Source: Glaucostegus cemiculus (taxonomy: Eukaryota). Taken from it: a stretch of DNA of 64,000 bases. The notes under the pieces are model-generated. The model was not told the origin of the DNA, searched no databases, and worked only from the letters and a program-made list of their open reading frames with translations. The position numbers were made by a program, and so were the translations under genes. Of this stretch, positions 1 to 64,000 are shown one piece after another (position 1 is the stretch's first letter; each line of letters opens with the position of its first letter). The DNA is taken from the NCBI GenBank assembly GCA_976551045.1, contig CDPCPM010000196.1, forward strand, positions 5,146,001 through 5,210,000. Reading direction: 5' to 3'.

Positions 1-1748
1 TGACTATTTTAAAGTGTCAGGCGAAAAAAATGGAAGTGACATGGTGACAAAGGGAAATCAGGCCGCAGATGAAGCAGCCAGGAAAGCCTCTCGATGTCGT
101 TTGGTTGTTATTGCATCTCAGGTGGGTCTGGGTCCAGAACCCCAAATGGAGAACATAATTGAAATACAAGGTAAGGAACAAACAACGTGGAGACAAAGAG
201 GAGCTATGTGAAACCAAGAAGGTCTGTGGAGCACAGATAATGGTTTGTTGGCAACACCTACCTCTTTGTTGACTACCCTCATTTCAGAGGTACATGGGTT
301 GGATCATTCTGCAAGGGGGAGAGGTTAAACAAATCACAATGGGTGTGGGTATAGCATTGCTTATGTCTACACTCATTTTATAATGCTTCCTTCCACACTT
401 TAAGTCCCTTCTACTGCGCGCCAAAGTGAAACAGTTTCCGATGCTCCTGGCGAAGACTGTGTCAAAACCCCCAGGGAAGGAAGTCGCAACAACATACTTC
501 TATGATCTGACTCCAGGAAATGTGCTCAATGATGACCACAACACTACAGATGACAACTATGCTTATGTTAGGGATTATTCTGTGAGGGCCGCAAGGTCCT
601 TTTCCGCGTCTCAGTTACGGAGGGATGGGTTTTTGGACCTCAGGCTCAGGCCATAGAGAGTGGATTCATGAGGCCTGGACACAAAAAGTACATTCTACCC
701 ATTTTTGGAATGATTGGCTTTAGTATTTGGGTGTCGTGTCCTATCAATTCTTTCTCTATGTCAGACCGTGGAACGCTCAAGGAGTGGGGGGGGGGGGGGG
801 CGGGATTATATAGAATATGGAGAGTAGAAAATTGAGTCTGTAAACGTGTTTATTCATTAATTATTGGGTGTCTAAGATGGCCGCTGGTGTTCCTGAGATG
901 GCTGCTGTTCTTTTTTTTTCAGCCCAAGCGCGTGGAACTCAGTGCAGAGACATAAAGCTCATTAAACAAATGGACAGTTCAGGAAAACACTTTTGATCTC
1001 AGGTAGCTAATTTAAAAGATCGGAAGCACATGTCTAGGAAGAGAGTATTCTGCTTTATTGTGCAGCTAATGATTTCATAGCAGCGAGTAGTTTTGATAAC
1101 TAAGAGCTTGGTGCCAACAAGTCTCAGGACTCAGAAGAGATAGTGACACTCTTTTGATGTTTTATAAAGAATAGCCTCGTAGCTAAGAAGGTTTAATACT
1201 GCTAATAATTGGATTGGAGAATAACTAAGTTTAGAAACTATGTACTCCCAAGATGTTCGCAGGTAATTGGGGCACCCTGTGTTTGAGTCACGAAATGCCA
1301 CGGATAGGAGACAAATGGTTAAAGAATGAAGCCACAAAGGTAACAGAGAACATGGTGGGTTGTGAGGATGTGATTGAACTATGAAAGATATATTATTATT
1401 AGAAAATTGCCTAGTACCGATTTAAAAAATGCATGTAGTAATTAGACTAAGAAATAACTGTAGCGCAGTTACAATTATGATATAAGTAGACTAGAGGTAA
1501 AATAAAAGCAATTATGTGAGCTAAGGAATGCAGAGTTTACAGATAGGTGTCACTTTGTGATTGAAATTGGTGCGATTGATTGTATGACTAAGCTGGTGAG
1601 GAAAATAAAAAGAGCTTGTAAGCCGTTGTTCGGGGGCACTTGGCGAAAGGGTTCAGCAAGTGTCTCAGCTTTTGTTTGCATATAAAAGTTTAACTACTTG
1701 ACGAATCTTCTGCGTCTCCTGGTCAATTGATTCTCGGGAAACCACAAC
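1..1748 (+). mobile_element. Degenerate class I (epsilon-like) ERV remnant: RNase H end, integrase N-terminus, env TM fragment, PPT, 3' LTR
   Basis: KGNQAADEAARKA (RNase H C-terminus), HGLDH (integrase zinc motif), G-rich PPT at ~781-805 followed by ~940 bp of LTR-like sequence ending where CR1 coding sequence resumes. Confidence 0.75.
806..1748 (+). repeat. Putative ERV 3' LTR (also ~32345-33285 and ~52343-53283)
   Basis: Immediately after a polypurine tract; AAGATGGC (YY1-like) motif near 875; TATA/polyA-like motifs at ~1603 and ~1680; boundaries approximate. Confidence 0.55.
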
Positions 1749-2470
1749 GATGGTCGCAAATGTTGTGGCTTTATTCAACAAGCGCAAAGGGGACAATCCA
1801 AGAAATTGCAGGCCGGTGAGTCACTCATCAGCAGTAGGGAACCTAATGGAGTGGATTCTTGGGAACTGGTGGATTCGCACACATTTGGTAAAACATGGAT
1901 TGATTATGGACAGTCAGCATGGCTTTGTACGTAGCAGGATAGGTCTAACAAAAGTGCCTGAATTTTTCCTGGAGATGACCCAGGTGATTAATGTGATTAC
2001 AGCAGTGGATTGACTGCACAGAATTTCGGAAGGCATTTGACAAGGTCAAGTATGGTGGACTGATCCGGGAGATTAAGATGCATGATGTTCATCGTCACAT
2101 GGCAGCTTGGACTGAGAATGGACTTGCCCATAATAGACAGAGAATACTGGTGGAAGTGTGCTATTCTGACTGGATGATTGTGGTAAGTGGTGCTTCAAAG
2201 GGATCGCTGCTGGATCCGTTTATGATATCAGTTGGATGAAAATGTAGATGGATGAGTTGCTAAGTGTGCAGACGATAGAAAAACGGGTAGAAATGTACAC
2301 AGTAAAATGATAGAGCAGAATATTAATCAGTTACGGATAGGGGAGGAGAAATAAGAGTTGGAGATTAATCTGAGTAACTGTCAGGTGTTGAATTTTCTGG
2401 AGGGGGACGGGTGTCAAATGTAAGGGAAAACGGAAATAATAGCAGGACATTTAACTGCATTGATTTACAG
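1749..2470 (+). mobile_element. CR1 LINE ORF2 (RT) fragment, degenerate (also ~33286-33990 and ~53284-53990)
   Basis: ANVVALFNKRKGDNPRNCRPVS...HLVKHGLIMDSQHGFV...KAFDKV...SKCADD, typical of CR1 RT. Confidence 0.85.
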
Positions 2471-2716
2471 AGAGAGATTTACATTGTAAATTATTATTCT
2501 CTCTGCTTACTGAGGTGGGGGTAGTTGCGCAGTTGCCATTATTAGCAACATCAGACGAGATCTGACTTTTTTTTTGTTTGTTTAAATGACTGTCACTAAC
2601 CCCAACCATTTTGTGTCAGTTATTTATCACACGGATTCTCTCGAGTATATCTTGCAAACTTACAAAGCCATAAACCTCCTCATGCGACTGACAGAAACCC
2701 AGGTTTCTCTTCCAGC

Positions 2717-4688
2717 ATGGAAAAGCCGGTACTAATTCAGACAGAACTTATTTACTACCCTATCCTTGCCACAGTCAGCGTACCTGGTGAGCCTCCTATT
2801 ATTTTCTGTCAAAGTTTCACTGTGTAGCTTCTAATTTTAAATGTATTTCTGCTATTTGCATTAAGTTTGATTGACACATACGAATGACTGGTTTTGAAAT
2901 CTAACCGACGTACACCGAAGTAAAATGACTTCGACAGTGTTGAAAGACAACAACAATTAACCTGACATGACTCAGTATTTTGGGCGCCAGTAACGGCTGC
3001 AATGGCAGGTCGTGCCTCAGCGAGAAGTGCCAAAGCGGATAGATGAGCTAAATTAGATGTCCATGGGATTGAGGAGGCTGAGAAGGGCAAGGAATTTTAA
3101 CTTTACAATAATTTCGGCTACTCGGGAGAAACGGAAGAGCGGCTGCTACTCCACTAAAATGTCCTAGGTAACTGAAGGACAGCAGGTCACCCACAGAGTT
3201 AACGAACTGCGCGCAGATCCTCAGCCGTATGATATATAAGATTAATTGGAATTATATCCGCATGTTGAATTAAATCTGGGGATTCCTTTCAAATTTTAAG
3301 GATGGTCAAATTTTCAAAAAATATTCATCGTATTTCAACTGGCGCACACTTCTTAAGGTTCTCGCATGAAAGCTGATGCGCATTTCTTACTATGAAGTGA
3401 CAGGAAGTTGAACAATAAGATATGACGCTTGAGACTGATTAGCGTAGCAGCCTCTATGCTTAACAGTCGACATTCCGCTCTATTCAAGTGAATGGTGCCT
3501 GATTTGATTGAGCTGTGAGACTTCCATACCACCGATAGTTGCTCCATTCGAATGTTCCGGCCTCGTTTAGCCATGCACTGTAGGATTTTGTTCATCACTA
3601 TTTCCGACAAGAAACAATACAGCTTGTCTTACAGAATCATGCGCACCTCGTCAGTACGAGGAAAAGAAGTCTGGTTCGGAGTCAAATAATCCACTTAATT
3701 TCATGCGACGAGCAGCCAGCACACCTCGTTGCAAGACCAATTAATGGTGGTAAATAATAACATATATCTTTTTTACCTGCAGCAAATTTCTTAGCCATCG
3801 TCATTCTGTTCCGTGGAAAATGTGGGCTCTCCAAATGCATCACCATTATATGGTGTCCATGGCCATAACTGATTTACTGGTTCTGGTGTTTCAGATAATT
3901 CTGTATGAGTTTAAGGATGGCTATTTCCCTGATTCGTTCCAGAATATAACTCCAGTTTGTAGTCTGCACCATGCCCTCATTCTTTTCTCCATGCATTGCT
4001 CTGTGTGGCTAACGGTGGCCTTCACCTTCGATCGATACATCACCATTTGTTGTCATAACCTATGGTCACAATACTGCACAGAAAAAACTGCGATTCGGGT
4101 GATATCAGTGGTTCTTGCCATAAGTATTTTCGAAAATATCCCAGTTTATTTCTCTTCATGCCTTGGAAAATAATTGACAACGTAGCTTGGTACTGTATTC
4201 TGAAATCGGAATTCTACACCTCACCTCTGTGGGTCACATTTTGGTGGTTTGAAACTATTTGTATCCCATTTGCACCATTTCTGCTGATCATGCTGCTCAA
4301 TAGTCTGACAATTAAGCATATACAAGCCAACAGAGTGCGGAGCGGACTCCGAGGGAGCAAGAATAATGAGAGTTCCACAGATAAAGAGGTGGAGAACCGG
4401 AGGAAGTCAATCATTCTATTACTCGCTGTATCTGGCAGCTTCCTCCTACTGTGGACGGTAAATTTCGCGAGCTACATTACTGTACAGTTCGCAGATGCTC
4501 CGTCTTTTGATACAAACTACAACGAACCATTTACCATTGCAAACGAAACAGGATATATGCTGAGGTGTTTGAGTACTTGCACGAACACGTTTATTTACGC
4601 GGTGTTTCAGACAAAATTCAGGGAGGAATTAAAACATATGATTTCGAGCCCTTTCCTTTGCTTGAATAATTCCATAAAGATCTTCTAA
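2717..4688 (+). pseudogene. GPR139/GPR142-like class A GPCR pseudogene, copy A; exon 1 2717-2786, exon 2 3783-4688
   Basis: Exon 1 MEKPVLIQTELIYYPILATVSVP + G|GTGAG donor; acceptor ttttacctgcAG; exon 2 ANFLAIVILFRGKCGLSKCIT, TM2 MAITDLLVL, FTFDRYITIC, ENRRKSIILL, TM7 CTNTFIYAVFQTKFREEL; two -1 frameshifts (~3843, ~4150); repaired length 325 aa. Confidence 0.9.
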
Positions 4689-4884
4689 AGTCACAGTGAA
4701 AAAAAGTTCGTTTCAATGAGACTCTTCAAGTGCATATTATTTATTGCATCCCACTCTCACCGAGTTAGGAGTCCATTCGAACCATTGAGTCGAGAACAAC
4801 TGTCAGAAGAATCACCCACCCCTCTCCCCTCTTTTCCACTCATCTGGCCCTCTTCCTTTTCTTTTTCTAAAACCGGTCAACGGC

Positions 4885-5085
4885 CCAGAAATTTACCCAT
4901 TGTCCGCCCACACCAGTTGCAATTCACAGCGACGAATCAATCAAGTACTTTCAATATTTGGTATGTGCGAGGATAGTTGGAATACCCAGAGGAAACCGAA
5001 GTGGTCACAGTAAGGATATTCAGTTTCCACGCAAACTGCACTGGAACTAATGCTAAGAGGCTACCGCATTGCCTCGCATCACTGC
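4885..5085 (-). mobile_element. Degenerate V-SINE (HE1-like) fragment (also ~36400-36600, ~56400-56600)
   Basis: Reverse complement resembles the V-SINE core (…GTGACC…GGTTTCCTCTGGGTATTCC…TCC…CACAT.CCAAA…). Confidence 0.5.
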
Positions 5086-5534
5086 AGACCCCCAGAATTT
5101 CATTGTGTAAAATTACGTTTGGGACATATTTTCATCTTAGAAGAACTACTGACCGGCCGGGATTGCTCTCCGCTGAAGTGTTTGCTTTCATCATGAATAA
5201 AATCTAAGAAATTCAATGAAAGTATGTTTATCTGTTCTGTCCTGCTGGTTGCATTCTTTATTCCATTTTTGATGTTCGTTTCAAATTAAGAGTTTTTCCC
5301 AACAATATCAATGCAATTTTAAATATATTTGAACATCAGAACATTTCGGCAATGCCAGCTGCCACCAGTGCGTTCCACCTCAGGCGCTGCCTCCTTTCGA
5401 CACATGGCCATGTGCGGCCCTTCCGCTTCATGTGTTGGTGTGCAGAGGAGCAGCAGGTTGGCGTGCACTGCGTGTCAGTGCAGGGTCGGAAAGAGGGTCA
5501 GACGAAGCAGGGTTTTGTCCAATAGCATCACAAC

Positions 5535-6125
5535 CTACAATGTGTGAATATTCTGAAATGTCGCTCCTGCTAATCAAGATTGTTGGCCCGTGTTCAGCAA
5601 AACCTAGCAGAGATGTTTTGGATATTTACAGCTGAAGGGTGTATTCTTTCCAGGAAAATCAATGGGAATTCTGCGAACTGAAATGCCAAAGAATGGCTTG
5701 TTAATGACTTCTCCAATTTTAATCAACGTAACTGTTGATTCGGTTTCACAAACAACATATATTCACTGGAAAGATTCGAATGCAATTTGGTGCATTAGTT
5801 GAGAAATGGAATCTTATGTTCGGACTGACGTGGACAATGCTCACACAAATAAAGTGCGAATTAAAGTGAAGTAGTTATTTCGTTTTTTTTTTAAACAAAC
5901 AATGGGCAATATTTGCTGTTAACTGCTTGAGCGGTACCTGTACCTCACGTAAGTCGCTTCATGTATATTGCTGTGTTAAATCTACTGCTATTAATACACG
6001 ATCAGTACGTGTCCTTCTTTCAGCTACCATTTTAACCTGAAATGGCATGACCGCCAGGACAATTGATGTCATAATGTATTTGAAAGGAGGACAGGTGTAC
6101 CCGCTGCCTCACAGCTCAAGAGTCA
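5535..6125 (+). repeat. Ancient internal repeat block, member 1 (paralogs at ~25430-26020 and ~27675-28040)
   Basis: Shared anchors gaa.att.tgaaa, agcagaga.gtt, acttctccaat, gga.tgac.tggac and (members 1 and 2 only) ttgctgtgttaaatc.actgct, ggacaggt.tacccgctg.ctcacagc. Confidence 0.75.
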
Positions 6126-6577
6126 CAGTTTCTTTTCTTTCTTTTTCAATCTTTTTATTGATAACAAATCATTACAGGTTAAGATATATAACAACAATGT
6201 TTACACATGTATTATATAAATATCAAATAATCGTAGATAATCATAAAAAAGCAATAAAATATGATGTATATAAAAGAAATAATTCCAACAATATCTCAGT
6301 TCATAAATGTAATATAAAAAATAAAAAAGAAAAAGATTTGTTATATAATTAGAAAAAAAAGAAAACAAAAAAACCCCAAAACATTTAAAAAAAAACAATT
6401 TAAAAAAATCATAATATAGAATAAATTGAACCAAAAATGAATTTAAAAAAAAGGGAAAAAAAAACAAAACAAGAAGAAGAAAAAAAAACTGGGCTAAAAT
6501 TCAATAGAGATAGAACAATATAATGTCATCAGCTCCGTTTCTCTAAATTTTAAAAAAAAAAGTTATAGAAGGGGAGA

Positions 6578-8333
6578 CTACATTGTATGAAAGTATTGAA
6601 TAAATGGACTCCAAACATCTTCAAATTTAAGCGAAGAATCAACAGTACCACTCCTAATTTTTTCCAAATTAAGACATGAAATAGTTTGAGAGAACCATTG
6701 AAAAGTGGTAGGGGGTATTGGATCCTTCCATTTGAGCAGGATTGCTCGTTTGGCCATCAATGTAACAAAAACAATCATACGATTAGCAGAAGCAGGTAAA
6801 TGGCCAGACTTTATCCATGGTAATCCAAAAATTGCAGTAATAGGGTAAGGTTGTAAAACGTTCTTCAATACATCTGAAATAATATTAAAAATGTCTTTCC
6901 AATATTTTTCCAAATTAGGACAAGACCAGAACATATGTGACAAAGAAGCCACGTTTGATTTACATCTGTCACATATAGGGTTTATACGATCATAAAAACG
7001 AGCTAGCTTATCTTTGGACATATAGGCCCTGTGCACAACTTTAAACTGTATCAATGAATGTCTGGCACACATTGAGGATGTATTAACTAAATGAAGAATT
7101 TTCTTCCAAGTCTCTATAGATATAGAAATCTGCAGTTCAATTTCCCAATCATTTTTAATTTTGTCCAGTGAATCTGCTGGTATTTTCATAATTAAATCAT
7201 AAATTATTGCTGTCAAGCCCTTCTGATGAGGATTAAAACCTAAAATTTTATCAATAATTTCATCTTTATAAAGAAATGGAAAGGAAGGTATAGTAGCTTT
7301 TAAAAAATTTCTAATCTGCAAATATCGAAAAAAATGTGATCTAGGTAAATTATATTTATTAGACAGCTGTTCAAAAGATGCAAAACAGTTATCAATGAAT
7401 AGATCACAAAAGCATACTATTCCCTTCCTTTTCCAAAAAGAAAAAGCTGTATCTAGTCTAGATGGTTGAAAAAAAAAATTAGATTGTATAGGACTTGACA
7501 AAACAAATTTAGTCAATCCAAAGAATTTACGAAATTGAAACCATATTCGTAATGTATGTTTAATGATTGGGTTAGTCATATATTTACTTAATTTGGTAAG
7601 TGCAAAAGGAAGTGAAGCTCCTAAAATAGAGAATAACGAAAATTCAAATGTTGATTGATACTCAAGATGTACCCATTTAGGGCATTGAATAACATTTAAG
7701 TCTTGTGTCCAAAAAATTAAATATCTGATATTGATTGCCCAATAATATAATCTAAAATTAGGCAAGGCCATACCACCATCCTTTTTCAGTTTTTGTAAAC
7801 ATTTCTTACTTAGTCTTGGATTCTTGTTCTGCCAAATATATGAAAGAATTTTAGAATCAACCTTGTCAAAAAAAGACTTTGGGATAAAAATTGGAATCGC
7901 TTGAAATAAATATAAAAATTTTGGTAAGATATTCATCTTAATTGCATTAATTCGGCCTATCAGTGATAAAGACATTGGAGACCATTTAGTAAGCGATTGT
8001 TTAACTTGGTCAAATAAAGGTAAAAAATTAGCTTTAAATAAATCCTTATGTTTATTAGTAATTTTAACACCTAAATACATAAAATAATCAGTTACCAATT
8101 TAAAGGGTAACTGGCTATAAATTGAGGTTTTCATATTCAGTGGAAAAAGTTCAGTCTTATTAAAATTTAGTCGATAACCAGAAAAAACACTGAATTGATC
8201 TAATAATAATAGTACTGCAGGGATCGATTCGTCTGGATTAGAAAGATAAAGTAATAAGTCATCTGCATAAAGAGATATCTTATGAGTATTCTGTCCACGA
8301 ATAATACCATGTATATTTAAAGAGTCTCGGATT
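6578..8333 (-). pseudogene. L1 ORF2 C-terminal part (RT YADD at 8258-8269 through the cysteine-rich CCHC domain)
   Basis: HKISLYADDLLLYL…SGYRLNFNKT…YLGV…GRINAIKMNILPKFLYLFQ…GGMALPNF…CDRC-x8-HMFWSC. Confidence 0.92.
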
Positions 8334-9170
8334 TGTTACGAAACCAGCAACAAAAGAAGCACACCAAGTCATACTTCAGTGTTAAATCTACTTTATTAAT
8401 AACTATATCCGATAATACGTAAAATAAGAATAAAAAGTTAGTATATTAGTACACAATAAAATGTTAGAATCTTAACCCCAAAACTATAACCTCAAAACTA
8501 CTCGTCGTGTATGTGCGGCAAGTTCCTAAACTCCAAGTCCAGGAATTAGGTCTTAAAGTCAGTTCAGTAAGCCGTAAGATGACACGAATAAAGGCTTCTT
8601 CACAAGCACTGTCCACCGAAGACAAAATATAGATATAGAGAGAGATTAGAGAGGAATCACGAAATCCAAATGTTCCACTCGAAACTCAAACGACACTTCA
8701 GGGCTTACTCAGTAGTGACTTTCTCACCCTGAAAACTCCTTGAATGTTGACTGTCCATGCAAATACCTGTGTTCTTCTACAGGTTAGCAGCAAAGTGAAT
8801 TCCGTCACTTTGTTCCACAGTATCTGCCACTCTGAAGAGCATCCAAAATGTGGTTGTTCACGCAAACACCTGTGTCCTTCTACAGGTTACCGACAAAGTG
8901 AACTCCACTGGACTACTCCAGAAATCTATCCACGGATTTTAGTGACAAACACAGTTACGGTCCTTCATCCATCGACAGAAACAAAACAAGCTGCCATCTC
9001 GCCTTCTTCTCTCTTTCCATCTGTCTGTCTGTCTCTCTCTCTCTTATCTTTTTTCTTTCTTGCAATGACCTCATCACGTTAGTCCCATCTTCTGTTGACG
9101 TAATACGTTACACACACACACAATGTCCCATCTAAAAGGGATATTTGCCTAAGTAAGCTACTTCGTAACA
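8334..9170 (-). repeat. Gypsy 3' LTR
   Basis: Direct repeat of 13299-14135; TG…CA ends; preceded on the minus strand by a purine-rich tract GTGTGGGAGG (9171-9180). Confidence 0.95.
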
Positions 9171-9295
9171 CCTCCCACACAAACAGAATTTTTTTTTCAA
9201 AAAAATTATTACCCGCGCATATAGTTAGTGATGTTAGTAATTATCATTCTACATACTAACAGTATATCAGATTAGTAACAATATAGGTCTTTCGT

Positions 9296-12241
9296 TTAAC
9301 ATCGAGAAAGGCAATCAGCAATTACATTATCTTTGCCTTTATTGTGAATTATCGTGAGATCAAATTCTTGCAGAATTAAACTCCAGTTTAACAGCCGTCT
9401 GTTTTTGTTTTTCACTCGGCTCAGAAACACTAACGGATTATGATCTGTGTATATAATCAACGGTTTCTGAGTTGGGCAAACATACACATTGAAATGTTGT
9501 AAGGCTAAAACAAGTGAAAGCAATTCTTTCTCTATCGTAGAGTAATTTTTCTGATGCTCATTAAACTTCTTTGAAAAGTAAGCTACAGGGTGGTCAATCT
9601 CATCAAGGTCACTCTTCTGCAACAACACAGCTCCTGCAGCTTCATCACTGGCATCCACTGCTAATGAAAATGGCTTTTCAAAGTCAGGTGACTTGAGCAC
9701 AGGATAGTAACACAAAATGGTTTTTAGCTTCTCAAATGCTTCTTGACAAGAATCTGTCCAAACAAATTTCACTCCTTTCTTCAGAAGATTAGTTAAGGGA
9801 AGAGCAATATCAGCAAAATTTTTACAAAATTTCCGATAATATCCAACCATTCCCAGAAATCTTCTAACAGTCCTGATGCCTGTAGGAACAGGGAATTCAG
9901 ATATCACTTGAACTTTTGCCTGAACAGGTGCTAACTTGCCTTGACCTACAACATAACCAAGATATGTCACAGTGGCATGGCCAAATTCACTTTTAGCCAA
10001 ATTGACTGTAAGGTTAGCTTTGGAAAGTCTTTCAAACAACCTTTCTAATGCAATGATGTGATCCTCCCATGTATCATTCCCTGTCACTAGATCATCAATG
10101 TAGGCATCTGTATGTTTTAACCCATGAATCACTGAATTGATTATTCTTTGAAATGTTGCTGGGGCATTTTTCATTCCAAATGGCAAAACATTGTATTCAT
10201 ACAATCCAGAAGGGGTTGCAAAGGCAGAAATCTCCCTTCCTCTCTCTGTTAATGGAACACACCAGTACCCTTTTAGTAAATCAATCTTTGTAAGAAATTT
10301 GGCCGTCCCCACTCTATCTATGCAATCATCTACCCTTGGAATGGGGTATGCATCCGACTTTGTCACAGCATTCACTTTTCTGTAATCTGTACAAAATCTA
10401 ATGGTCCCATCAGGTTTTGGCACAATTACACAGGGCGAACTCCAGTTTGAACTGGAACGTCTGATGATGTCATTTTCTAACATATACTCAATTTCCTGAT
10501 CAACAAGTTTACTTTTATCCACATTCATTCGATATGGCTGTTGTTTGATTGGTTTTGCATCCTCAACGTCAACATCATGGGTAATTATTGACGTTCTGTT
10601 TGGCACATTGGGAAAAAGATTTTTAAATTTTAAAAGTAACTGTTTCATCTGCTGTTTCTGTGAATCTTGTAAATGGTCCAACTTTGTCTCAAGGTTCTCC
10701 AAGATATTTTGGTTTTCTAGCCTTGCTGAAATAATATTTGGTCTACATTGGCCTCCCTCATTGTCAACAACAGATGTCTCAGGGACATTCCTCACGCACT
10801 GATTCCCAACTTCAGACTTTGGCAATGGTCCAACACAATCCAAAATCACCTTTGAAAAGCGTTCACCAAAATCAGGAATGGGTTTCAGAGGAGCCACAGG
10901 GGGTTTTTGATTTGGTTTACCTACCATCTGACATGTATGACAGGTTCGACAGAACATCACCACATCTTTTCTCAAACCAGGCCAATAGAATTGTTTCAAG
11001 ATCTTCCCCACAGTTTTATTCACCCCTAAATGACCACCTAAAGGCATGCTATGGGCCAGGTTTAAAATCTCATCCCGATAAACTTTAGGAACTACTACCT
11101 GATGAATAACTTCCCACTCCTCATTCACAGGGACATGAGGCGGTCTCCATTTCCTCATTAACAATCCATCCTTGACATAATATCCAACTGGCACTTTTTC
11201 AATTTCCTCACTTGAGAGTGCTTTTTCCTTCAGTTCAGTCAGTTCAGGGTCTTTATTCTGTTCCACCATAAATTCTTTCCTTGACAAAGACAAATCTTTG
11301 TATTCAGGCCCACTACCAAAACTTTGATCCTCCAGTGAAGACAGAAAAGTGTCAGACAAATCATCATAATTTTCCTCTTGTTTAGGACTATCACAAGGAA
11401 CAATTTCAGACTGTGTAGAATTCTCGGCCTTAGCTAATTCTTTAGCTTTAGCTCGGGTTACTGCACAAGATGGATAAATGTCTGCGTCATTCTCAGATTC
11501 AGTAAAGCTTGGTTTAGTTGTTAACTGTACCACAGAAACAAATTCTTCACCTGCAAGGTCATTTCCCAATAACAAAGAAACACCCTCCACTGGTAAACTT
11601 GGTCGTATCCCTATCTCAACAGGTCCTTCCACGAACTTTGATTTTAAAATCACCTTGTGCAAAGGCACGAACATGGTATCACCTGTAACACCTCGCACTA
11701 GATTTACCTCACCAGTTTCAGTTTCCTTACCAAAATTTAAAACACTGTCCAGCAAGAGAGATTGGGAAGCTCCAGTATCTCTAAGGATTTTCACTGGTAC
11801 CTGGGGTGACCCATCCTTCAGTGAAACAAAACCTTCTGATACATATGAACGGAATTCCTCCCTCACCTCATCCAGCTTTTCAGTCTTCATCTCTAGCAAG
11901 GACTGATCTTTCACAACCTCCCCTAAACCTCTTCTACTTTCGGGTTTAATAACTTGACAACAGGCAGTTGGCACAGCTCCCTTTTCATGCTTTTTCTTCA
12001 AAACAGAACAGTCAAATTTCATATGGCCAGGCTTCTTACAGTAATAACAAAGACGCTCAGCAGGTTTCTCCAGCACTGGCTTCTTGTCATCCTTCCCTTT
12101 TGGATTATCTCCCAATTTAATCTCTGGTTTACCTGGATTGTCTCTGTAACTCCTTTGAAAGGTTTTAGGTTGTCCCCATCTGTATTTATGGGTTAAAGCA
12201 TAATCATCTGCCAACCTAGCAGTTTCTTGTAAAGTGTCCAC
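9296..12241 (-). CDS. pol: Gypsy gag-pol polyprotein part: zinc knuckle, protease, truncated integrase, RT, RNase H (981-aa open frame)
   Basis: CYYCKKPGHMKFDC; LRDTGAS (DTG at 11771-11779); AHSMPLGGH…CRTCHTC and VILDCVGPLP; KIDLLKGYW, LPFGMKNAP, YIDD (10091-10102); DASD…EKELL…TDH…NVIADCLSR. Confidence 0.93.
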   Translation of the reverse strand: MDTLQETARLADDYALTHKYRWGQPKTFQRSYRDNPGKPEIKLGDNPKGKDDKKPVLEKPAERLCYYCKKPGHMKFDCSVLKKKHEKGAVPTACCQVIKPESRRGLGEVVKDQSLLEMKTEKLDEVREEFRSYVSEGFVSLKDGSPQVPVKILRDTGASQSLLLDSVLNFGKETETGEVNLVRGVTGDTMFVPLHKVILKSKFVEGPVEIGIRPSLPVEGVSLLLGNDLAGEEFVSVVQLTTKPSFTESENDADIYPSCAVTRAKAKELAKAENSTQSEIVPCDSPKQEENYDDLSDTFLSSLEDQSFGSGPEYKDLSLSRKEFMVEQNKDPELTELKEKALSSEEIEKVPVGYYVKDGLLMRKWRPPHVPVNEEWEVIHQVVVPKVYRDEILNLAHSMPLGGHLGVNKTVGKILKQFYWPGLRKDVVMFCRTCHTCQMVGKPNQKPPVAPLKPIPDFGERFSKVILDCVGPLPKSEVGNQCVRNVPETSVVDNEGGQCRPNIISARLENQNILENLETKLDHLQDSQKQQMKQLLLKFKNLFPNVPNRTSIITHDVDVEDAKPIKQQPYRMNVDKSKLVDQEIEYMLENDIIRRSSSNWSSPCVIVPKPDGTIRFCTDYRKVNAVTKSDAYPIPRVDDCIDRVGTAKFLTKIDLLKGYWCVPLTERGREISAFATPSGLYEYNVLPFGMKNAPATFQRIINSVIHGLKHTDAYIDDLVTGNDTWEDHIIALERLFERLSKANLTVNLAKSEFGHATVTYLGYVVGQGKLAPVQAKVQVISEFPVPTGIRTVRRFLGMVGYYRKFCKNFADIALPLTNLLKKGVKFVWTDSCQEAFEKLKTILCYYPVLKSPDFEKPFSLAVDASDEAAGAVLLQKSDLDEIDHPVAYFSKKFNEHQKNYSTIEKELLSLVLALQHFNVYVCPTQKPLIIYTDHNPLVFLSRVKNKNRRLLNWSLILQEFDLTIIHNKGKDNVIADCLSRC

Positions 12242-13153
12242 ATTCTTTTCATTTAGGTATGCAGCATTTCAGCTGGTACACATCTTTTAAAGTCTTCTAT
12301 TAAAACTAATTCTGTCAATTTCTTATAATCATCAACTACATCTTTCGCCATACACCATCGTTCAAAACATATTCTCTTTCCATTGGCAAACTCCATGTAT
12401 GTTTGATCTGAAGTTTTCTTCAAGTCTCTAAACTTTTGTCTGTACGCTTCTGGTACCAACTCATACACTTTCAAGATTGCTTGTTTTACTTTTTCATAAT
12501 CAGCTGCCTCCTCCACAGACAAAGCAGAATAAGCTTTTTGAGCTTTGCCTTTAATCACACTCTGTAACATAAGAGCCCATCTCCTTTTTGGCCAATTTAA
12601 ACTCGTAGCAACCTTTTCAAAATGTTGGAAATACTGTTCAACCTGATCTTCATCAAAAGGAGGGACTAATCTAACCTCCCTACTGGCTGAAAACTCATCA
12701 TCAGAATCAGAATCTGAACTCTTTCTCTGCATTCTTAACTGATGTTTCCTTTGTTCCTCCCTCTCTTTATTTTCCAGCTCCATCCTCCTCAATTCCAACC
12801 TCTTTTTCCTCTGCCTGAGCTTCAAATTTCAATCGGTCCCTTTCTAACTCAGCATCTATCTTTCTTTGTTCCCTTTCAGCCTCTATCTTTGCTAACTGAA
12901 TTTGGGCATCAGAAATCGCTTGTTCACTGCCAGGAAATTGTTTTACTACTCCCTCTTCAAACACTTGCATCTTCACATAATGACCAGCCATTATTTTCTG
13001 GATATCTGCTTTTCTCATAGATTGTGTTACTGTCGTAAGTTTTAGCTCTGTAGCAAGAATTAATAATTCAGACTTCTTCATTCTCTGCAATCCACTTGGG
13101 GTGGGTTTTTTCATAAACACCTCCATTGCTACTGGTTTCCACACACACGCCAA
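12242..13153 (-). pseudogene. gag: Gypsy gag N-terminal/capsid (SCAN-related) region with two compensating frameshifts
   Basis: LVPPFDEDQVEQYFQHFEKVA…WPKRRWALMLQ…YELVPEAYRQKFR; +1 slip at ~12805 and -1 at ~12263; start 13153 is in frame with 12241. Confidence 0.88.
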
Positions 13154-13276
13154 TTAAGAAAATGTATTGGACCAACCCCAATGTCCAAACTCAGACCTCC
13201 AGTACCAGTCTTAAGTTTGACTGCAAACCAAATCTTTGGACTGGATCCCAGAACGACACTCATTAATCTTGGGAAG

Positions 13277-13294
13277 ATCGCGGACGAGCCCCCA
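13277..13294 (-). promoter_or_regulatory. Primer-binding site, tRNA-Pro type
   Basis: Minus strand TGGGGGCTCGTCCGCGAT, 4 nt after the 5' LTR; 17/18 match to the canonical tRNA-Pro PBS TGGGGGCTCGTCCGGGAT. Confidence 0.9.
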
Positions 13295-13298
13295 ATTT

Positions 13299-17507: not shown

Positions 17508-17642
17508 TTTAACAGTTAAAAAAAAACTTACAACAGTATTGTAAAAAAAAAACTTATTAAAGGGTGGTATATAGTGGATTGAAAAGTACCTGGACCAAAG
17601 CCAAGTTGTGGCTCAGTCCATGAGCGCCACCAAGAGACTGCC

Positions 17643-43550: not shown

Positions 43551-43586
<36 letters not shown>

Positions 43587-53000: not shown

Positions 53001-53283
53001 CAGTTACAATTATGATAAAAGTAGACTAGAGGTAAAATGAAAGCAATTATGTGAGCTAAGGAATGCAGAGTTTACAGCTAGGTGTCACTTTGTGATTGAA
53101 ATTGGTGCGATTGATTGTATGACTAAGCTGGTGAGGAAAATAAAAAGAGCTTGTAAGCCGTTGTTCGGGGGCACTTGGCGAAAGGGTTCAGCGAGTGTCT
53201 CAGCTTTTGTTTGCATATAAAAGTTTAACTACTTGACGAATCTTCTGCGTCTCCTGGTCAATTGATTCTCGGGAAACCACAAC
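50095..53283 (+). mobile_element. Degenerate class I ERV, next copy
   Basis: Near-identical to 30098-33285. Confidence 0.88.
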
Positions 53284-56200
53284 GATGGTCGCAAATGTTG
53301 TGGCTTTATTCAACAAGCGCAAAGGGGACAATAGAAGAAATTGCAGGCCGGTGAGTCACTCATCAGCAGTAGGGAACCTAATGGGGACTGGTGGATTCGC
53401 ACACATTTGGTAAAACATGGATTGATTATGGACAGTCAGCATGGCTTTGTACGTAGCAGGATAGGTCTAACAAAAGTGCCTGAGTTTTTCCTGGAGATGA
53501 GCCAGGTGATTCATGTGATTACAGCAGTGGATTGACTGCACAGAATTTCGGAAGGCATTTGACAAGGTCAAGTATGGTGGACTGATCCGGGAGATTAAGA
53601 TGCATGATGTTCATCGTCACATGGCAGCTTGGACTGAGAATGGACTTGCCCATAATAGACAGAGAATACTGGTGGAAGTGTGCTATTCTGACTGGATGAT
53701 TGTGGTAAGTGGTGCTACAAAGGGATCGCTGCTGGATCCGTTTATGATATCAGTTGGATGAAACTGTAGATGGATGAGTTGCTAAGTGTACAGACGATAG
53801 AAAAACGGGTAGAAATGTACACAGTAAAATGATAGAGCAGAATATTGATCAGTTACGGATAGGGGAGGAGAAATAAGAGATGGAGATTAATCTGAGTAAC
53901 TGTCAGGTGTTGAATTTTCTGGAGGGGACGGGTGTCAAATGTAAGGGAAAACAGAAATAATAGCAGGACATTTAACTGCATTGATTTACAGAGAGAGATT
54001 TACATTGTAAATTATTATTCTCTCTGCTTACTGAGGTGGGAGTAGTTGCGCAGTTGCCATTATTAGCAACATCAGACGAGATCTGACTTTTTCTTTGTTT
54101 GTTTAAATGACTGTCACTAAGCCCAACCATTTTGTGTCAGTTATTTATCACACGGATTCTCTCGAGTATATCTTGCAAACTTACAAAGACATAAAACTCC
54201 TCATGCGACTGACAGAAACCCAGGTTTCTCTTCCAGCATGGAAAAGCCGGTACTAATTCAGACAGAACTTATTTACTACCCTATCCTTGCCACAGTCAGC
54301 GTACCTGGTGAGCCTCCTATTATTTTCTGTCAAAGTTTCACTGTGTAGCTTCTAATTTTAAATGTATTTCTGCTATTTGCATTAAGTTTGATTGACACAT
54401 ACGAATGACTGGTTTTGAAATCTAACCGACGTACACCGAAGTAAAATGACTTCGACAGTGTTGAAAGACAACAGCAATTAACCTGACATGACTCAGTATT
54501 TTGGGCGCCAGTAACGGCTGCAATGGCAGGTCGTGCCTCAGCGAGAAGTGCCAAAGCGGATAGATTAGCTCAATTAGATGTCCATGGGATTGAGGAGGCT
54601 GAGAAGGGCAAGGAATTTTAACTTTATAATAATTTCGGCTAGTCGGGAGAAACGGAAGAGCGGCTGCTACTCCACTAAAATGTCCTAGGTAACTGAAGGA
54701 CAGCAGGTCACCCACAGAGTTAACGAACTGCGCGCAGATCCTCAGCCGTATGATATATAAGATTAATTGGAAATATATCCGCATGTTGAATTAAATCTGG
54801 GGATTCCTTTCAAATTTTAAGGATGGTCAAATTTTCAAAAAATATTCACCGTATTTCAACTGGCGCACACTTCTTCAGGTTCTCGCATGAAAGCTGATGC
54901 GCATTTCTTACTATGAAGTGACAGGAAGTTGAACAATATGATATGACGCTTGAGACTGATTAGCGTAGCAGCCTCTATGCTTAACAGTCGACATTCCGCT
55001 CTATTCAAGTGAATGGTGCCTGATTTGATTGAGCTGTGAGACTTCCATACCACCGATAGTTGCTCCATTCGAATGTTCCGGCCTAGTTTAGCCATGCACT
55101 GTAGGATTTTGTTCATCACTATTTCTGACAAGAAACAATACAGCTTGTCTTACAGAATCATGCGCACCTCGTCAGTACGAGGAAAAGAAGTCTGGTTCGG
55201 AGTCGAATAATCCACTTAATTTCATGCGAAGAGCAGCCAGCACACCTCTTTGCAAGACCAATTAATGGTGGTAAATAATAACATATATCTTTTTTACCTG
55301 CAGCAAATTTCTTAGCCATCGTCATTCTGTTCCGTGGAAAATGTGGGCTCTCCAAATGCATCACCATTGTATGGTGTCAATGGCCATAACTGATTTACTG
55401 GTTCTGGTGTTTCAGATAATTCTGTATGAGTTTAAGGATGGCTATTTCCCTAATTCGTTCCTGAATATAACTCCAGTTTGTAGTCTGCACCATGCCCTCA
55501 TTCTTTTCTCCATGCATTGCTCTGTGTGGCTAACGGTGGCCTTCACCTTCGATCGATACATCACCATTTGTTGTCATAACCTACGGTCAAAATACTGCAC
55601 AGAAAAAACTGCGATTCGGGTGATATCAGTGGTTCTTGTCATAAGTATTTTCGAAAATATCCCAGTTTATTTCTCTTCATGCCTTGGAAAATAATTGACA
55701 ACGTAGCTTGGTACTGTATTCTGAAATCGGAATTCTACACCTCACCTCTCTGGGTCGCATTTTGGTGGTTTGAAACTATTTGTAGCCCATTTGCACCATT
55801 TCTGCTGATCATGCTGCTCAATAGTCTGACAATTAAGCATATACAAGCCAACAGAGTGCGGAGCGGACTCCGAGGGAGCAAGAATAATGAGAGTTCCATA
55901 GATAAAGAGGTGGAGAACCGGAGGAAGTCAATCATAACTCGCTGTATCTGGCAGCTTCCTCCTACTGTGGACGGTAAATTTCGCGAGCTACATTACTGTA
56001 CAGTTCGCAGATGCTCCGTCTTTTGATACAAACTACAACGAACCATTTACCATTGCAAACGAAACAGGATATATGCTGAGGTGTTTGAGTACTTGCACGA
56101 ACACGTTTATTTACGCGGTGTTTCAGACAAAATTCAGGGAGGAATTAAAACATATGATTTCGAGCCCTTTCCTTTGCTTGAATAATTCCATAAAGATCTG

Positions 56201-59200
56201 CTAAAGTCACAGTGAAAAAAAGTTCGTTTCAATGAGACTCTTCAAGTGCATATTATTTATTGCATCCCACTCTCACCGAGTTAGGAGTCCATTCGAACCA
56301 TTGAGTCGAGAACAACTGTCAGAAGAATCACCCACCCCTCTCCCCTCTTTTCCACTCATCTGGCCCTCTACCTTTTTTATTCTAAAACCGGTCAACGGCC
56401 CAGAAATTTACCCATTGTCCGCCCACACCAGTTGCAATTCACAGCGATGAATCAATCAAGTACTTTCAATATTTGGTATGTGCGAGGATAGTTGGAATAC
56501 CCAGAAGAAACCGAAGTGGTCACAGTAAGGATATTCAGTTTCCACGCAAACTGTACTGGAACTAATGCTAAGAGGCTACCACATTGCCTCGCATCACTGC
56601 AAACCCACAGAATTTCATTGTGTAAAATTACGTTTGGGACATATTTTCATCTTAGAAGAACTACTGACCGGCCGGGATTGCTCTCCACTGAAGTGTTTGC
56701 TTTCATCATGAATAAAATCTAAGAAATTCAATGAAAGTATGTTTATCTGTTCTGTCCTGCTGGTTGCATTCTTTATTCCATTTTTTATGTTCGTTTCAAA
56801 TTAAGAGTTTTTCCCAACAATATCAATGCAATTTTAAATATATTTGAACATCAGAACATTTCGACAATGCCAGCTGCCACCAGTGCGTTCCACCTCAGGC
56901 GCTGCCTCCTTTCGACACATGGCCATGTGCGGCCCTTCCGCTTCATGTGTTGGTGTGCAGAGGAGCAGCAGGTTGGCGTGCACTGCGTGTCAGTGCAGGG
57001 TCGGAAAGAGGGTCAGACGAAGCAGGGTTTTGTCCAATAGCATCATAACCTACAATGTGTGAATATTCTGAAATGTTGCTCCTGCTAATCAAGATTGTTG
57101 GCCCGTGTTCAGCAAAACCTAGCAGAGATGTTTTGGATATTTACAGCTTAAGGGTGTATTCTTTCCAGGAAAATCAATGGGAGTTCTGCGAACTGAAATG
57201 CCAAAGAATGGCTTGTTAATGACTTCTCCAATTTTAATCAACGTAACTGTTGATTCAATTTCACAAACAACATATATTCACTGGAAAGATTCGAATGCAA
57301 TTTGGTGCATTAGTTGAGAAATGGAATCTTATGTTCGGACTGACGTGGACAATGCTCACACAAATAAAGTGCAAATTAAAGTGAAGTAGTTATTTCGGTT
57401 TTTTTAAAACAAACAATGGGCAATATTTGCTGTTAACTGCTTGAGCGGTACCTGTACCTCAAGTAAGTCGCTTCGTGGATATTGCTGTGTTAAATCTACT
57501 GCTATTAATACACGATCAGTACGTGTCCTTCTTTCAGCTACCATTTTAACCTGAAATGGCATGACCGCCAGGACAATTGATGTCATAATGTATTAGAAAG
57601 GAGGACAGGTGTACCCGCTGCCTCACAGCTCAAGGGTCACAGTTTCAATGCTGTCCTGTGCGGTGTTCGGCGTGGAGATTCCATGTTCTCCCTGTAACCT
57701 CGTTGGTTCTCTCGATGATTCCTTTATTCTGCCTCATCGAAAGTCCACAGCAAATTACCCTTTATGTGCTGTTGAGTGGTATGATCTGGGTTCAGTTGAT
57801 AGGAATGGGCAGATTCATGAATGAGGGTTAGAAATTCCAATCGATTTGTGATAAATGAAGACAGTTGGAAAACAGAACCTGTGGCTTCAACGGGATGCCG
57901 ACAGTAAATACAGCTCCAGACTGCGCCTGACGAGGTGGAGAGTTAGAGAGCCTGATAATCAAAGCTTTATACACCTCAGAAAGACGCTTCAGGTCATCAC
58001 GCCCAGGCCTTTTCAAGTACCTCTGAATCATCTGAACAGTACCTGATCCCACCATCTCTTTTGGAAGCACATTCAAGATATCTTCCATTCTCGGTGTTAA
58101 AACAAATCCCCAAGTTCCCCTTTCAGACTCCTTCATCTGGTCAGAAACCTGTGCCATGCAGTTTGTGACAGATCCATTGTGGGATTGTCAACTGGTAGAT
58201 TGTTGAAGAGAGTGGCTTGAAATTTTCTGTCATCTTTAGAGGATTTTTGTTCTAAAAGACATACATCAACATGAAAAAGCAAGGACTGGGTGGTGATCAG
58301 TTTACTGGGAAGTCTCCTAAAATTCGGCATCAGGTATACAGACAACTCGCAGGATAGTTGTGACGGATTTCATCATCACTGGTATTAATTGGGATTGAGT
58401 TGGTGTGAAATATGTAGATATTCCAAATGGAGAGATTACATTCCTGAAGGTAATCTCATGAACTGTAGCATGTGAATGAGGAAGAATATTCGGAAATAGT
58501 CGCCATAACTCTGTAAATTCTGGAACAATCTACATCTGTTCTTGAGTAAGTCCACATCTGTCATATGGAACCTGTGAAAGAGAAGCTGATGAGGATTCAG
58601 GACCACCATGTTGATATTGGATTAGAAAATAACGATGGCAATGTAGAAGAACCTTGGATGACAGGAGGTAAGTTAAACCGAGTCAAAAAAAAGGTACACA
58701 TTCATAAGACGAAGGAAGCTGACAAAGGACAAAGCCCATGAGGAAAATAAAAGAAACAAGAAAGATCTGGAACGAAGAATCAGGTGGCTGCAAGAGCCAT
58801 AATATGTACCTGGCAAGTGGAAGTAAATAAAATTCCAGGTCATTTTAACATATATTATAAACAAGAAGATAGCCAGCGAAAGAGAGGCTCAATCGAGGTC
58901 AAAGGAGTTAAATTGTGCCGGAGACAGACAAGTTAGCGAGATACCAAATGGGTGTTCAAATCAGTACTCACCATGGAGAACAATGTGAATGATAGTGGGA
59001 TCAGGGAGAGGTATGTTATATTTTTGGTAATGCTGCTATTCGGAAGAAGGACGTGCTGGGTCACTTCAATGACCTTAAAGTGGATAGGTCCCCGCGGCCT
59101 GAATGTATCTCTCTCAGAATAGCGATGGAAACAAGGCAAAACATTATTGCTACCACTGTAAGATTCACTAGGCTATCATTTACTGGGTGACCCCCAAGGT

Positions 59201-62200
59201 TGTCTAAAAATAGGGGAAAGGCATTAGCTATTCTCTAGTGTTCTAGTAAATCAGCTGCGTCAAACAAACATAGAAAGATCTTCGACAGAGCATGAGCTAC
59301 GTTTTTTTTTGTTTCAGATTCCAGCATCTGTGGCATTTGTATATGCTGGGGGAGTTCATCGATGTTGATTTTCTTTTTGTGACACAGTTCAGTATATTTG
59401 GGCGATGTAGAATTGTGTAATATGTAGAAAATCTCTGTACATGGATCATTACTGATGTTATTTTTTTTCAGTTGAGGCATCTCATTAAGTACCACTTGAA
59501 CTATGTATTATTTGGTTCATCAAAACTGCTGAGAGGCACAACAGGAAACTTCGAGATATTCCTTATATCTTGAAGAAGTCTCCATCCATCACGTCTCCTG
59601 TCAACGTCAACAGGTTTCCTATTCACTGAGGGAGCAGCGCTGTCATTCTGAAGACCAAACAGCGGTTTCTCTTGATATTCCAGTAATTTATTCTGATAAG
59701 TCAGAGGAAGGCGGTTCAAAACAGATGTGACACTGTTGAACCACTGAGAATGAAAATTAAATCAAAATCAAGTGAAAATATACCAACATTTGAAATAGAT
59801 CCAAAACTACCATCTCTCTCCCTGCATTTAGGGAAGACACCATAACCAAAAATACATTAAATGGTTACAGAACATCAATAAACAATTCAACCAGTCGAAT
59901 TTATACCTGCAATCAATAACTTTAGGAGTATTACATTTCTTCTTCAATATGGAAAAAATACTTTTCACTTTTACTCTCTATTTCCTGATAGCTAACCAAT
60001 TTAGCCATTTCGACTGCATTTATCGCATAGGCGTTTCTTCATGTCAACAATGATACACACTTTCCGAAGTGAGTTCGCCATGACTGCCTGCTACTAAGTT
60101 AAGTCAAATCGAGCCGTGTTGTTTGAATGTGAACAACTACGGTGAAGTAAGTGCACAGTGAAAAACTTGCTAGCAGCAGCATTACAGGCAAACCGTTTCA
60201 AACTAGTCACAGAATATAAACCGTACATAACTTTTGCAGAATCAATCCATAGTCGTGTACGTGAGGGCAAATACTGTACTTGATTATTTTTCCAGAATGT
60301 TTCTGCCACCAGCCTGAAACAGATGGTTCTTCCATTATTGAGTGTACCTATGCGCACCTTCTTTGCAAAAGTCTGTAACATTTGCATTTCTCCAGTCCTC
60401 AGGAACAATCCATGGATCTGCAGATGTGTACATGAGTGCACCAAGGCCATTTTGGTGTTATACAAACTGACTTCAGCCGTGCTTCAGTTTCGCATTTTGA
60501 ATCAGGAGTGCGAATTCAATACAAATACCGGGGCATGGCTCCCGAGTAAACCATTAATGATCAACGAAATCAGAGAAATGTGAGTTACAGGGTCCGAATT
60601 TCGAGGCGAGTATTTAAATGCCCTTAATTCCAGCCTCTTTGAATGTGAAATAATGATTTTCCATGTGTTCAACTTACTGTATCAGACAATATTCATCAAT
60701 ATTGCCACTGTGATTTGCTTTCAAAACAGAAGGAATAACTTCGCAGAAATGCACTTGAAATTAACCAAATGAGGCTTTAACTAACATTTGTCAATATTTT
60801 CCAAGAAATCTGAAATATTTATGCAGCTGCACAGCCTTACCATGAAAACATTCATCATATGAAAACTGTTTTGTCAAATATATGAAACGTTTGACCCACA
60901 ATGTCAAATTCCTTTATTTTCACCTTCTACATACTTGCCAAATTCTCCAGTCACATGCGATTGTCTGTATATATTTCGGTTTTTATCTGATACTTCTTTC
61001 ATCTTATGCAACAAACTGAATTCCCAAACTTCAAGATTTATGAACAGATTATCCCCCTTCGCCATGAGATTTCTGAACAGTTCATGAAACCGTGAACACA
61101 ACCTCATTATTCCTTTCCTTGCACTATTTATGCATGTTAACATTTGTTGTATTTTTTATGACTTTGCTTTATACTACTACCAAAACCAACAAATCTTACG
61201 TCATGTCAGTCAGTGTTAAAACGTCTGAATCAGATTCTGATCTCACGGAAAGCGTCACGTGTTTATTACTTAATCCTTTGATAGGCTGTGGTCATGGATA
61301 CAAATTGCGATGCATTTTGCATTAACGGAAAAAAGGTGATCGATGGTCACTGTGGATGGTGGGCCGTAAGGACTCTTTCCCTGCTGATTCTATTAATCTG
61401 TGAGTCGCCAAATGCCTTGATATTGCATCCCGCTTGTTCTTTTCCCTCATTGAAACAGGTGCACTGCGGATCACTGTGACAAGGTCTTCTGTAGTAAATA
61501 ATCTGCTCCAGCTGTTCAAAGCCATGGCCTTGATGAGCGAGATAAGCGTTAAATACAACCTGGTAGGTTAATACTCGATGCGGAAATTAACTAAAGCTCA
61601 AGACTGGCTCTGACGAGGAGGTCAGTCAGAGACGTATCGAGCGATAGTGTTGGATAGCACAGATGATGCCCTTCAGCCCAACCCATCCATGGCAACATTT
61701 TGGCCAACCTCCACTCAATGAATTTTTCTCAATTAGGAGAACATCCTCCCATACCTTACCTATTAAAAGACCTTTCTAAATCCCTCTGAAGCACATTAAT
61801 TTTAGCTGATTCCGCCCCCTCCGTTGGAGCAGGTTCCACATCCAATCCATTCGCTCTCTGAAATCAAATATCCCACGGTTCCCTTGAAAAGTCATTCCCC
61901 TGATATTAAATCTATGTCCGATAGATTCTTTCAAGTCGATCGTGGGAATGGAATGTACGATTCGTTTTGAATGCGCAGGATGGTAACTTCCCGATAATCT
62001 TTAGTGGGTTTTTACCTTAAAATTAATACATCGGCATGAAAACACAAGGAGTAGGGTAGTGATCACTCTGCTGGAAGGTACTTCCAATGTCAGCAGCAGA
62101 TATGCAGTCAACTCGCAGGATAATAGTGGTAGATTTCATCCTCCTCGATATTAATAGTGACTGCGTTGCTGTGCAAGCCTCGGCATGAGTGGAATTTTAA

Positions 62201-64000
62201 AACGAATCCAGGAGATCTTTTGAGCCAGTCGATAGGTAGTCCAACTGATGAAATTGGATTGCTGAACTAATCTTATGGAATGTAGCTGAGTAACTGGTTC
62301 GATTGTCAGTGGGGGAGAATTTCGGTGTCAGTCAGCATACCTGTGTAACATATTGGGCAAATACGCACTTGTTATTAGGTGAGTCCACATCTAACATGTT
62401 TGAGTCTTTTACAGATGTTGTTTTGGATTCATGTCCAGCCTGTTGAAAGAAAGGTGAAAGGCAAGGATGGCAATGTTCATGAACTTTGGATGACGGGAGA
62501 TAACTTAGGTTTAGTCAAAAGAAAACTGAAACATTTGTCAGATCAAGGAAACTGAGAATGGCAAAGGTGCCAGAGAAATACAAATGCAGCAGTAAAACAT
62601 TGAAACAAAAAATGTGGAGAGCGACAGGGGTCATGGAATGCCCTTAGCAAGTGGGAGTAAGTAAAATCTCGATGCAGTTTATTCATATCTAATAAAATGG
62701 TACCTAGAAAGAGAAAAGGAGGTTCAAACAAGAACATTAGAAAGACATTATACCAGGACAAGTGGGCGCCGTATTTAATGGCTATTCAGAAGGAGAAGGA
62801 CGTGGATGACAGTGATATCACGAAGGGTGCGTTGATATTCTCTGGCATGCTTTAATAGGAAAGAGTATGTGCCGTGTCTCTCAAAAACGTGAAGAACTAT
62901 AGGTCCCCGGGGCCTGATGAGATCTATCCTAAGATAACGAAGGGAGCATTGCTTGAGATTGCTGAGCCTTGGCCAGAACTGTCCTTCCAATGTTATCTCT
63001 ACCAATGTAAGGCTCACCGGCCTGCTGTTTCTGGTTTATCCCTGATTACCTTTTCAATTCAGGAAGCACTACTCTGCAGTTTTCTGGCGTATCAGCCAAG
63101 TCGAACAAAGATGGAACAATTTGCGAGTAAAATGTAGTCAGAATTTTACAAAATCCGCATGTTCCACTATGGAACAGATAAGACACCCTCTATCTCTGAA
63201 GATCTCCGCTGCTTTATTCCGAAGTATCTGCCACCCCGAGGGCATTCGATACATGGACGCCCAAGGAAATACCTGCTTTCCAGTACAGTTCAACGACTAA
63301 GTGACTCCACTTGATTGCTCCAAAAATCCACACATGGATTGCGGTAACAGACACAGCTATTGTTTTACATCCATTGATACAGAGTCCAGCAGTCAGAGTC
63401 CATCTCTTTCTCTCTCACACTCTCTCTCTCCTCTCTCTCTCTCTCTCTCGCTCTATCTATCTCTCTCGCTCTCTCTTCGACTTTGTTTCCAAACAGCCAG
63501 TACGCTACAGTCATAGTCTTGCTCTCTTGAAGATTAGACAAACATACACACACACACACAACTCTACAGTCCAGTTGCCTTAAAGAGACATTCACCGAGT
63601 ATCAACCTGGATCGTTACACTTCTCATTACAATATTTGCAGAAATAGATGGAAAGTCGACAAAATAACCTTCAGAGAAAATGTGTTGATTTTTTTTTAAT
63701 GAAATCTGAAGCATTTCACCAGCTGAAGACCCAGAGTAAGGGCAACAATCTTCATCTGAAAAGTGTTTGGTGTAAAATTGACAAACGTTTGAAGGACAAT
63801 CTCGAATTCCTTGCTTTTCACCTTCACTTATCAACTTCCAGACAGTCCATTTTCGGAAGCATTCCAAATTTTCCAGATGTATGCGTTTGTCTGCATATAT
63901 TTCGGTGTTTATTTCACTCTTCCTCCATCTTCAACAGGAGACCAAAAACACAAGCTCAACGATTTGGGAACAGATTCTTATCCTAGTCCACCGATGATGC
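51531..64000 (+). repeat. ~20-kb tandem unit, copy C (partial, runs off window)
   Basis: ORFs offset 19,997-19,998 from copy B (e.g. 35343 vs 55341); offset changes to 19,987 and lower after ~62990. Confidence 0.97.
54238..56204 (+). pseudogene. GPR139-like GPCR pseudogene, copy C; exon 1 54238-54307, exon 2 55304-56204
   Basis: Translations identical to copy B (three frameshifts). Confidence 0.9.

Follow-up and report, generated by a model that had tools for sequence, protein, structure and literature searches.

A 20-kb repeat in a ray receptor gene array is probably a two-copy tandem duplication carrying a receptor pseudogene

Introduction

The stretch of DNA analyzed here, called the window throughout, comprises 64,000 bases of a Glaucostegus cemiculus contig (C196:5,146,001-5,210,000) in which a sequence of about 20 kb with a receptor gene copy recurs head to tail. 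The question raised by this locus is what kind of repeat it represents and what it says about the way in which the surrounding receptor family grows. Six hundred kb of flanks were examined in addition to the window, and there was not a single N across the 1.2 Mb examined.

Results

Self-comparison of the window aligned positions 17,643-44,025 with 37,640-64,000 at 99.72% identity, with offsets of 19,997 and 19,998, bearing out the period of about 20 kb (19,997-19,998) proposed in an earlier note made on this DNA. The periodic stretch extends from 17,643 to 67,619 (in the window as 17,643-64,000, its end lying outside), representing 2.3 periods inside the window and 2.5 overall; a period of 20 kb is beyond the reach of Tandem Repeats Finder. 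The repeat is well above chance, and its first copy is out of the 20-kb register. That copy, positions 1-6,132, is 98% identical to 31,534-37,648 and 51,531-57,646 at offsets near 31.5 and 51.5 kb, and is part of a parent unit of a 30.7-kb type (U3) that was displaced by an 11.5-kb insertion of an L1 and an LTR element at 6,133-17,642. The earlier count of at least 2.6 head-to-tail copies combined the periodic stretch with this parent-unit part; the periodic repeat itself was correctly recognized.

The parent array occupies C196:5,032,402-5,221,104 (189 kb) and consists of six units, U0-U5, the basic unit being ~30.7 kb with three receptor genes in the order g2, g3, g1. The 20-kb unit is this three-receptor unit minus 10.7 kb containing g1 and g2. 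It had been anticipated that the array continues beyond both window edges, which is true of the older 30.7-kb array (it reaches 114 kb to the left and 11 kb to the right of the window) but not of the 20-kb period. No other genes were found in the 20-kb unit when all 64 of its 64 frames of at least 70 aa were scanned, as only retroelement and receptor fragments passed; two domain matches below the cut-off among these frames were read as chance.

The loss of ~10.7 kb of the parent unit is marked by two deletion junctions, at 27,651-27,652 and 47,648-47,649, which are identical across 3,001 bases. At the first of these, sequence lying upstream of g1 in one unit is joined directly to sequence lying downstream of g2 in the following unit, with 10,743-10,768 parent bases missing, or 12,131 relative to U2, which has an extra insertion. 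Judging from the other units, the deletion took out a g1 that was probably truncated and a g2 that was probably open. Homologous recombination was considered as a mechanism for the 10.7-kb loss and rejected, as BLAST of the 2 kb around each breakpoint produced no hit and one base, with no longer homology, is common to both sides of the join. Among 40 places scored in the genome the whole junction was present at two, both in the window, and none was found on other contigs. That the junction recurs identically, and is whole nowhere else among the scored places, points to one deletion and one duplication.

The receptor gene retained in the 20-kb unit is g3, which has a first exon of 70 nt, a GT-AG intron of 996 nt and a second exon of ~906 nt. 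There are three copies in the window, all on the forward strand and all pseudogenes: copy A (2,717-4,688; exon 1 2,717-2,786, exon 2 3,783-4,688), copy B (34,240-36,206) and copy C (54,238-56,204). In exon 2 of copy A, one base is missing at each of codons 21 and 125 and three bases are missing at codon 180; copy B has these lesions and has in addition lost 5 bp at codon 213, and exon 2 of copy C is identical to that of copy B, such that the two 1-bp deletions are present in all three and the 5-bp deletion in B and C. In each of the three the frame stops after 28 exon-2 codons, far short of one open across seven helices. Hence, of the earlier proposal that every copy carries one two-exon class A GPCR, the two-exon layout stands and the intact gene does not, and the duplication added only one dead gene. 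Both frameshifts, together with the 3-bp deletion, are common to all six g3 copies of the parent array, which indicates that the gene was dead before amplification. In addition, contigs from two runs of one related sample, X1 (35,535-35,722) and X2 (35,561-35,722), pass the second frameshift without a gap, arguing that the lesion is real and old and no assembly error. Open g3 genes occur at C196:2,872,191 and 3,840,237, and comparison of copy B with intact g3 gave 5 synonymous and 17 replacement codons, which fits neutral drift (p=1.0).

The assignment of the receptors to the class A GPCRs is based on matches to Pfam 7tm_1 (PF00001) of 79.8 bits for the intact neighbor g2 and 38.4 bits for the copy B fragment (cut-off 30.5). 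The best solved-structure match of g2 was GPR139, aligned over TM1-TM7 (E=3e-7, 33 bits), with 5-HT1A at 32 bits; high sequence conservation with GPR139 was not seen at this score, and the TM6 motif differs (LWMVN in the local receptor vs. LWAPR in GPR139). Identity to shark and ray family members is 52-85%, and 113 of the 120 homologues listed carry names, all of them from sharks and rays, the best among those listed being a stingray protein at 85%. Databases label the shark and ray homologues GPR139, a label also given in the Atlas entry for the stingray homologue. By sequence comparison, "GPR139-like" would be the nearest label rather than established orthology. Fish and coelacanth orphans named GPR210 have been described separately beside GPR139/142 (Rinne et al., 2019, PMC6504862) and provide a lead as possible relatives of the local family. 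Among the titles listed in literature searches, none concerned this receptor family. Term searches of the catshark and whale shark genome papers gave no matches for "GPR", and a ray genome preprint, whose supplements may list the cluster, has one, which concerns SUCNR1.

The L1 that interrupts U3 (6,133-17,642, reverse strand) has recognizable ORF1, endonuclease and RT regions in broken frames and is flanked by a 9-bp target duplication, CACAGTTTC, at 6,124-6,132 and 17,643-17,651. Unit U2 holds the same L1 insertion without the LTR retrotransposon that is nested within it in U3 (8,334-14,135, reverse strand; LTRs 8,334-9,170 and 13,299-14,135). The nested element has a 4-bp target duplication (GATT) and is young, its LTRs differing at 1 of 839 aligned bases. 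Its SCAN, zinc knuckle and integrase zinc finger domains precede RT and RNase H, an integrase-before-RT order like that of Gmr1-like elements as described in bioRxiv 10.1101/2025.03.03.638093; no integrase core domain was detected in the element. Relatives of it are located at C196:5,245,496, 5,278,271 and 5,046,703. Within the 20-kb unit, LINE reverse-transcriptase debris (24,015-25,107, forward strand) and RT and RNase H debris of an LTR-type element (30,077-30,830, forward strand) both recur at +19,997, in agreement with the identical retroelement debris noted earlier.

Several features of the parent array bear on how it was built. Its junction truncates g1 ~20 codons before the end and has 25 inserted bases, made up of repeats of a 10-mer that is present 7 bases into the adjoining flank; within the 1.2 Mb examined, the 17-mer core of the insert occurs only at three array junctions, and AGAAC motifs related to the filler are present elsewhere. 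As the 25-bp filler also resembles LINE-tail repeats, a block-duplication step with a polymerase-theta-type join is uncertain. The groupings of the units shift along the 30.7 kb, which rules out a simple tree of the six units. U2 and U3 have the L1 in common, while U1, U2, U4 and U5 have the 5-bp g3 deletion in common, a distribution that requires exchange between units. Open genes in the array number three of four for g2 and one of four for g1. Between the g2 genes of U0 and U1 there are 9 synonymous and 7 replacement codons (p=0.003), a codon pattern that shows purifying selection on g2 in the array. The sole break in g2 of U2 (C196:5104191) is one extra T in a T run and may be a consensus error. 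We also observed a 1.4-kb element with a AATAGAAC-repeat end (C196:5101062-5102447) inserted ~3 bases from the U1/U2 array junction, and a tandem duplication with a 4,253-base period (99.86%) within an LTR element of U0 (C196:5046703-5056030), which represents a fourth scale of duplication.

The two 20-kb copies are only 6 substitutions and 1 homopolymer indel apart, as compared to 0.6-1.5% for other pairs of units and 3.9% to U0. In a three-way alignment the middle unit follows U5 as far as 41,067 and U3 from 41,504 onward, placing the probable crossover at 21,071-21,506 (equivalents 41,068-41,503 and 61,066-61,501), the middle unit being U5-like before and U3-like after this interval. The interval falls inside a near-identical tract (19,298-22,663) in which only 4 sites in 3.4 kb distinguish U3 from U5, the two outer units, vs. 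~1% elsewhere; a chimeric unit that switches between its flanking paralogs inside long homology is what unequal crossover produces. We are therefore rather confident that a deletion-shortened unit with only a frameshifted receptor pseudogene was duplicated in tandem to give the two copies of the 20-kb repeat, likely by one recent unequal crossover in the older 30.7-kb three-gene array. At a rate of 7e-10 per generation, borrowed from another species, the epaulette shark (PMC10587355), the age of the duplication is capped near 2e5 generations. As the divergence of the copies is also less than the allelic diversity of the epaulette shark, the duplication may still be segregating. Copy-number variation between individuals is plausible.

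The same low divergence (0.03%, under the pi of 0.002 in another shark, PMC10587355) is what might be seen if two haplotypes, each with one deleted unit, had been assembled in tandem. Long-read assemblies still contain false duplications of the haplotype type (PMC9516828), no second haplotig of the 20-kb block was found among the 40 scored matches, and a false haplotype join in the 3.4-kb near-identical tract would be indistinguishable in sequence from a true crossover between homologs. However, the copies are identical for no more than 6,450 bases at a stretch, and the flanks of ~1% divergence on either side of the tract holding the switch bring it within the span of long accurate reads, if the assembly used such reads, and we regard a false duplication as rather improbable. 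The X1 and X2 contigs contained 0.27-0.29 of the words at a divergence of a few percent, and no listed piece of either bridges 27,651; coming from one related sample and being divergent and shallow, they are uninformative on copy number or junction.

The earlier note had named the repeat a macrosatellite, and its head-to-tail units of several kb are in keeping with that name. D4Z4-type macrosatellite arrays, however, consist of tens of homogeneous units, whereas two junctions and 2.5 periods are present in this assembly, and the name gives way to a two-junction duplication. It could be argued that many 20-kb units were collapsed to two, as near-identical long units collapse easily and assemblies often represent large gene-bearing tandem arrays poorly (PMC2588610), but the contig is gap-free, its two junctions have no counterpart among the scored places on other contigs, and both flanks run into recognizable 30.7-kb units, making a collapsed macrosatellite very unlikely. 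Least credible to us is that the duplication was favored, e.g., through lower g2 dosage or more of a regulatory pseudogene transcript: g2 is under purifying selection in the array and one g2 was lost with the deletion, and g3 exon 1 and splice sites are intact in five of six copies, yet three open g2 copies remain, g3 decay is neutral, and at 2% divergence the retention of splice sites is to be expected. The 20-kb event is likely neutral.

Beyond the array, 47 receptor copies were identified in 660 kb, 17 of which have an open second exon by the rule of our script and 30 of which are broken; 14 of the 47 are in the 30.7-kb array. A protein search of the genome identified at least 101 receptor matches on C196 over ~4.1 Mb (1.45-5.58 Mb), a lower bound as 130 of 19,699 candidates were scored. 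This GPR139-labeled elasmobranch cluster accords with the earlier statement that GPR139/142-like receptors are expanded in cartilaginous fish annotations. Duplication at a larger scale was also evident, with C196:2.85-3.07 Mb matching 3.82-4.04 Mb at 97-99% identity (offset ~970 kb) and 10-kb samples from 2.10, 2.22 and 2.49 Mb giving matches of 99.2-99.9%. From these three samples and the aligned part, there is a candidate tandem pair of ~970-kb blocks, ~2.09-3.07 vs. 3.07-4.04 Mb (97-99.9%), which may be two loci or two haplotypes. An older third period of the block is seen at 4.02 Mb (91-94%) and at 5.02-5.29 Mb (92-95%), the latter being a paralog of 2.85-2.95 Mb, a region that has just one three-gene unit, in which g3 is open and both g1 and g2 are broken. 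Loss is reciprocal: g3 is open and g1/g2 are broken at 2.86-2.89 and 3.83-3.86 Mb, whereas g3 is dead and some g1/g2 are open at 5.03-5.22 Mb. Elsewhere in the genome we observed near-identical receptor blocks on four contigs (C24, C65, C129 and C647), four equal-scoring broken receptor copies on C68, three of them ~450 kb apart, and equal-scoring copies on three more contigs (C85, C152 and C267).

The proposal that the family expands by large-unit tandem amplification is thus supported for the cluster, by the share of copies in one array and the ~970-kb block, but not for the 20-kb unit, which carries dead cargo and from which two receptor genes were deleted. It is possible, although we hold this only tentatively, that this is an undescribed shark-and-ray receptor cluster with nested tandem duplication at 20 kb, 31 kb and ~1 Mb, whose sister blocks silence opposite members.

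Discussion

The order of events at this locus can be proposed in some detail. The frameshifting of g3, common to all copies, would have come first. The g2-g3-g1 block would then have been duplicated end to end via the non-homologous join at which g1 lost its end and the 25-bp filler was left, possibly by repair of a polymerase-theta type. Subsequently the array would have grown to several units that exchanged sequence, presumably by unequal crossover and conversion, leaving the mosaic observed. The 10.7-kb deletion would have removed one g1 and one g2, after which the units flanking it mispaired and crossed over, duplicating 20 kb; mispairing and crossing over of U3 and U5 on two deletion-bearing chromatids would give the switch pattern seen in the chimeric middle unit.

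By itself the 20-kb unit is minor, but it is a clear, orderable example of churn in a receptor cluster, and it cautions that, in clusters of this kind, near-identical copies of a gene may be dead cargo. The two junction types are simple PCR markers for copy-number variation. The wider setting is weightier, with a cluster of over 100 receptor-like genes in a lineage regarded as having few receptors of this kind, and block duplications up to the megabase. Should the megabase blocks prove real and still be segregating, individual rays would carry candidate chemosensory repertoires that differ by dozens of genes.

Comparison to known systems places these observations in context. GPR139, which is activated by L-Trp and L-Phe (PMC12208981), is the best solved-structure match of the local family, but the latter, in contrast to GPR139/GPR142, is multi-copy. 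The 30.7-kb unit, not the 20-kb unit, resembles tandem duplications made by polymerase theta, for which templated inserts are described as hallmarks (PMC13031629), in that a short insert at the parent-array junction is built of repeats of a 10-mer present in the adjoining flank; it differs in that the insert has 25 bases, the classes given in that source being 1-20, and a LINE tail is a rival source. With the gene-bearing large tandem arrays and megasatellites described by Warburton et al. (2008, PMC2588610), the locus has in common multi-kb head-to-tail units, recurring transposon patterns, an element inserted into a subset of the units and indications of unequal crossover, yet the 20-kb unit has only two junctions and the parent array six heterogeneous units, 0.6-4% apart.

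The 20-kb repeat is ordinary turnover of a birth-and-death gene cluster, in which no new receptor was born. Clusters of odorant, V2R and TAAR receptors are understood under the birth-and-death model. A stingray V2R cluster has 65 genes over 3 Mb (bioRxiv 10.1101/2025.06.08.657570); the receptors described here belong to a different family, one unnamed in the part of that survey consulted. The likeness to birth-and-death clusters lies in the multi-megabase extent, the shared strand, the many pseudogenes (here 30 of 47 copies broken in 660 kb) and growth by duplication of blocks.
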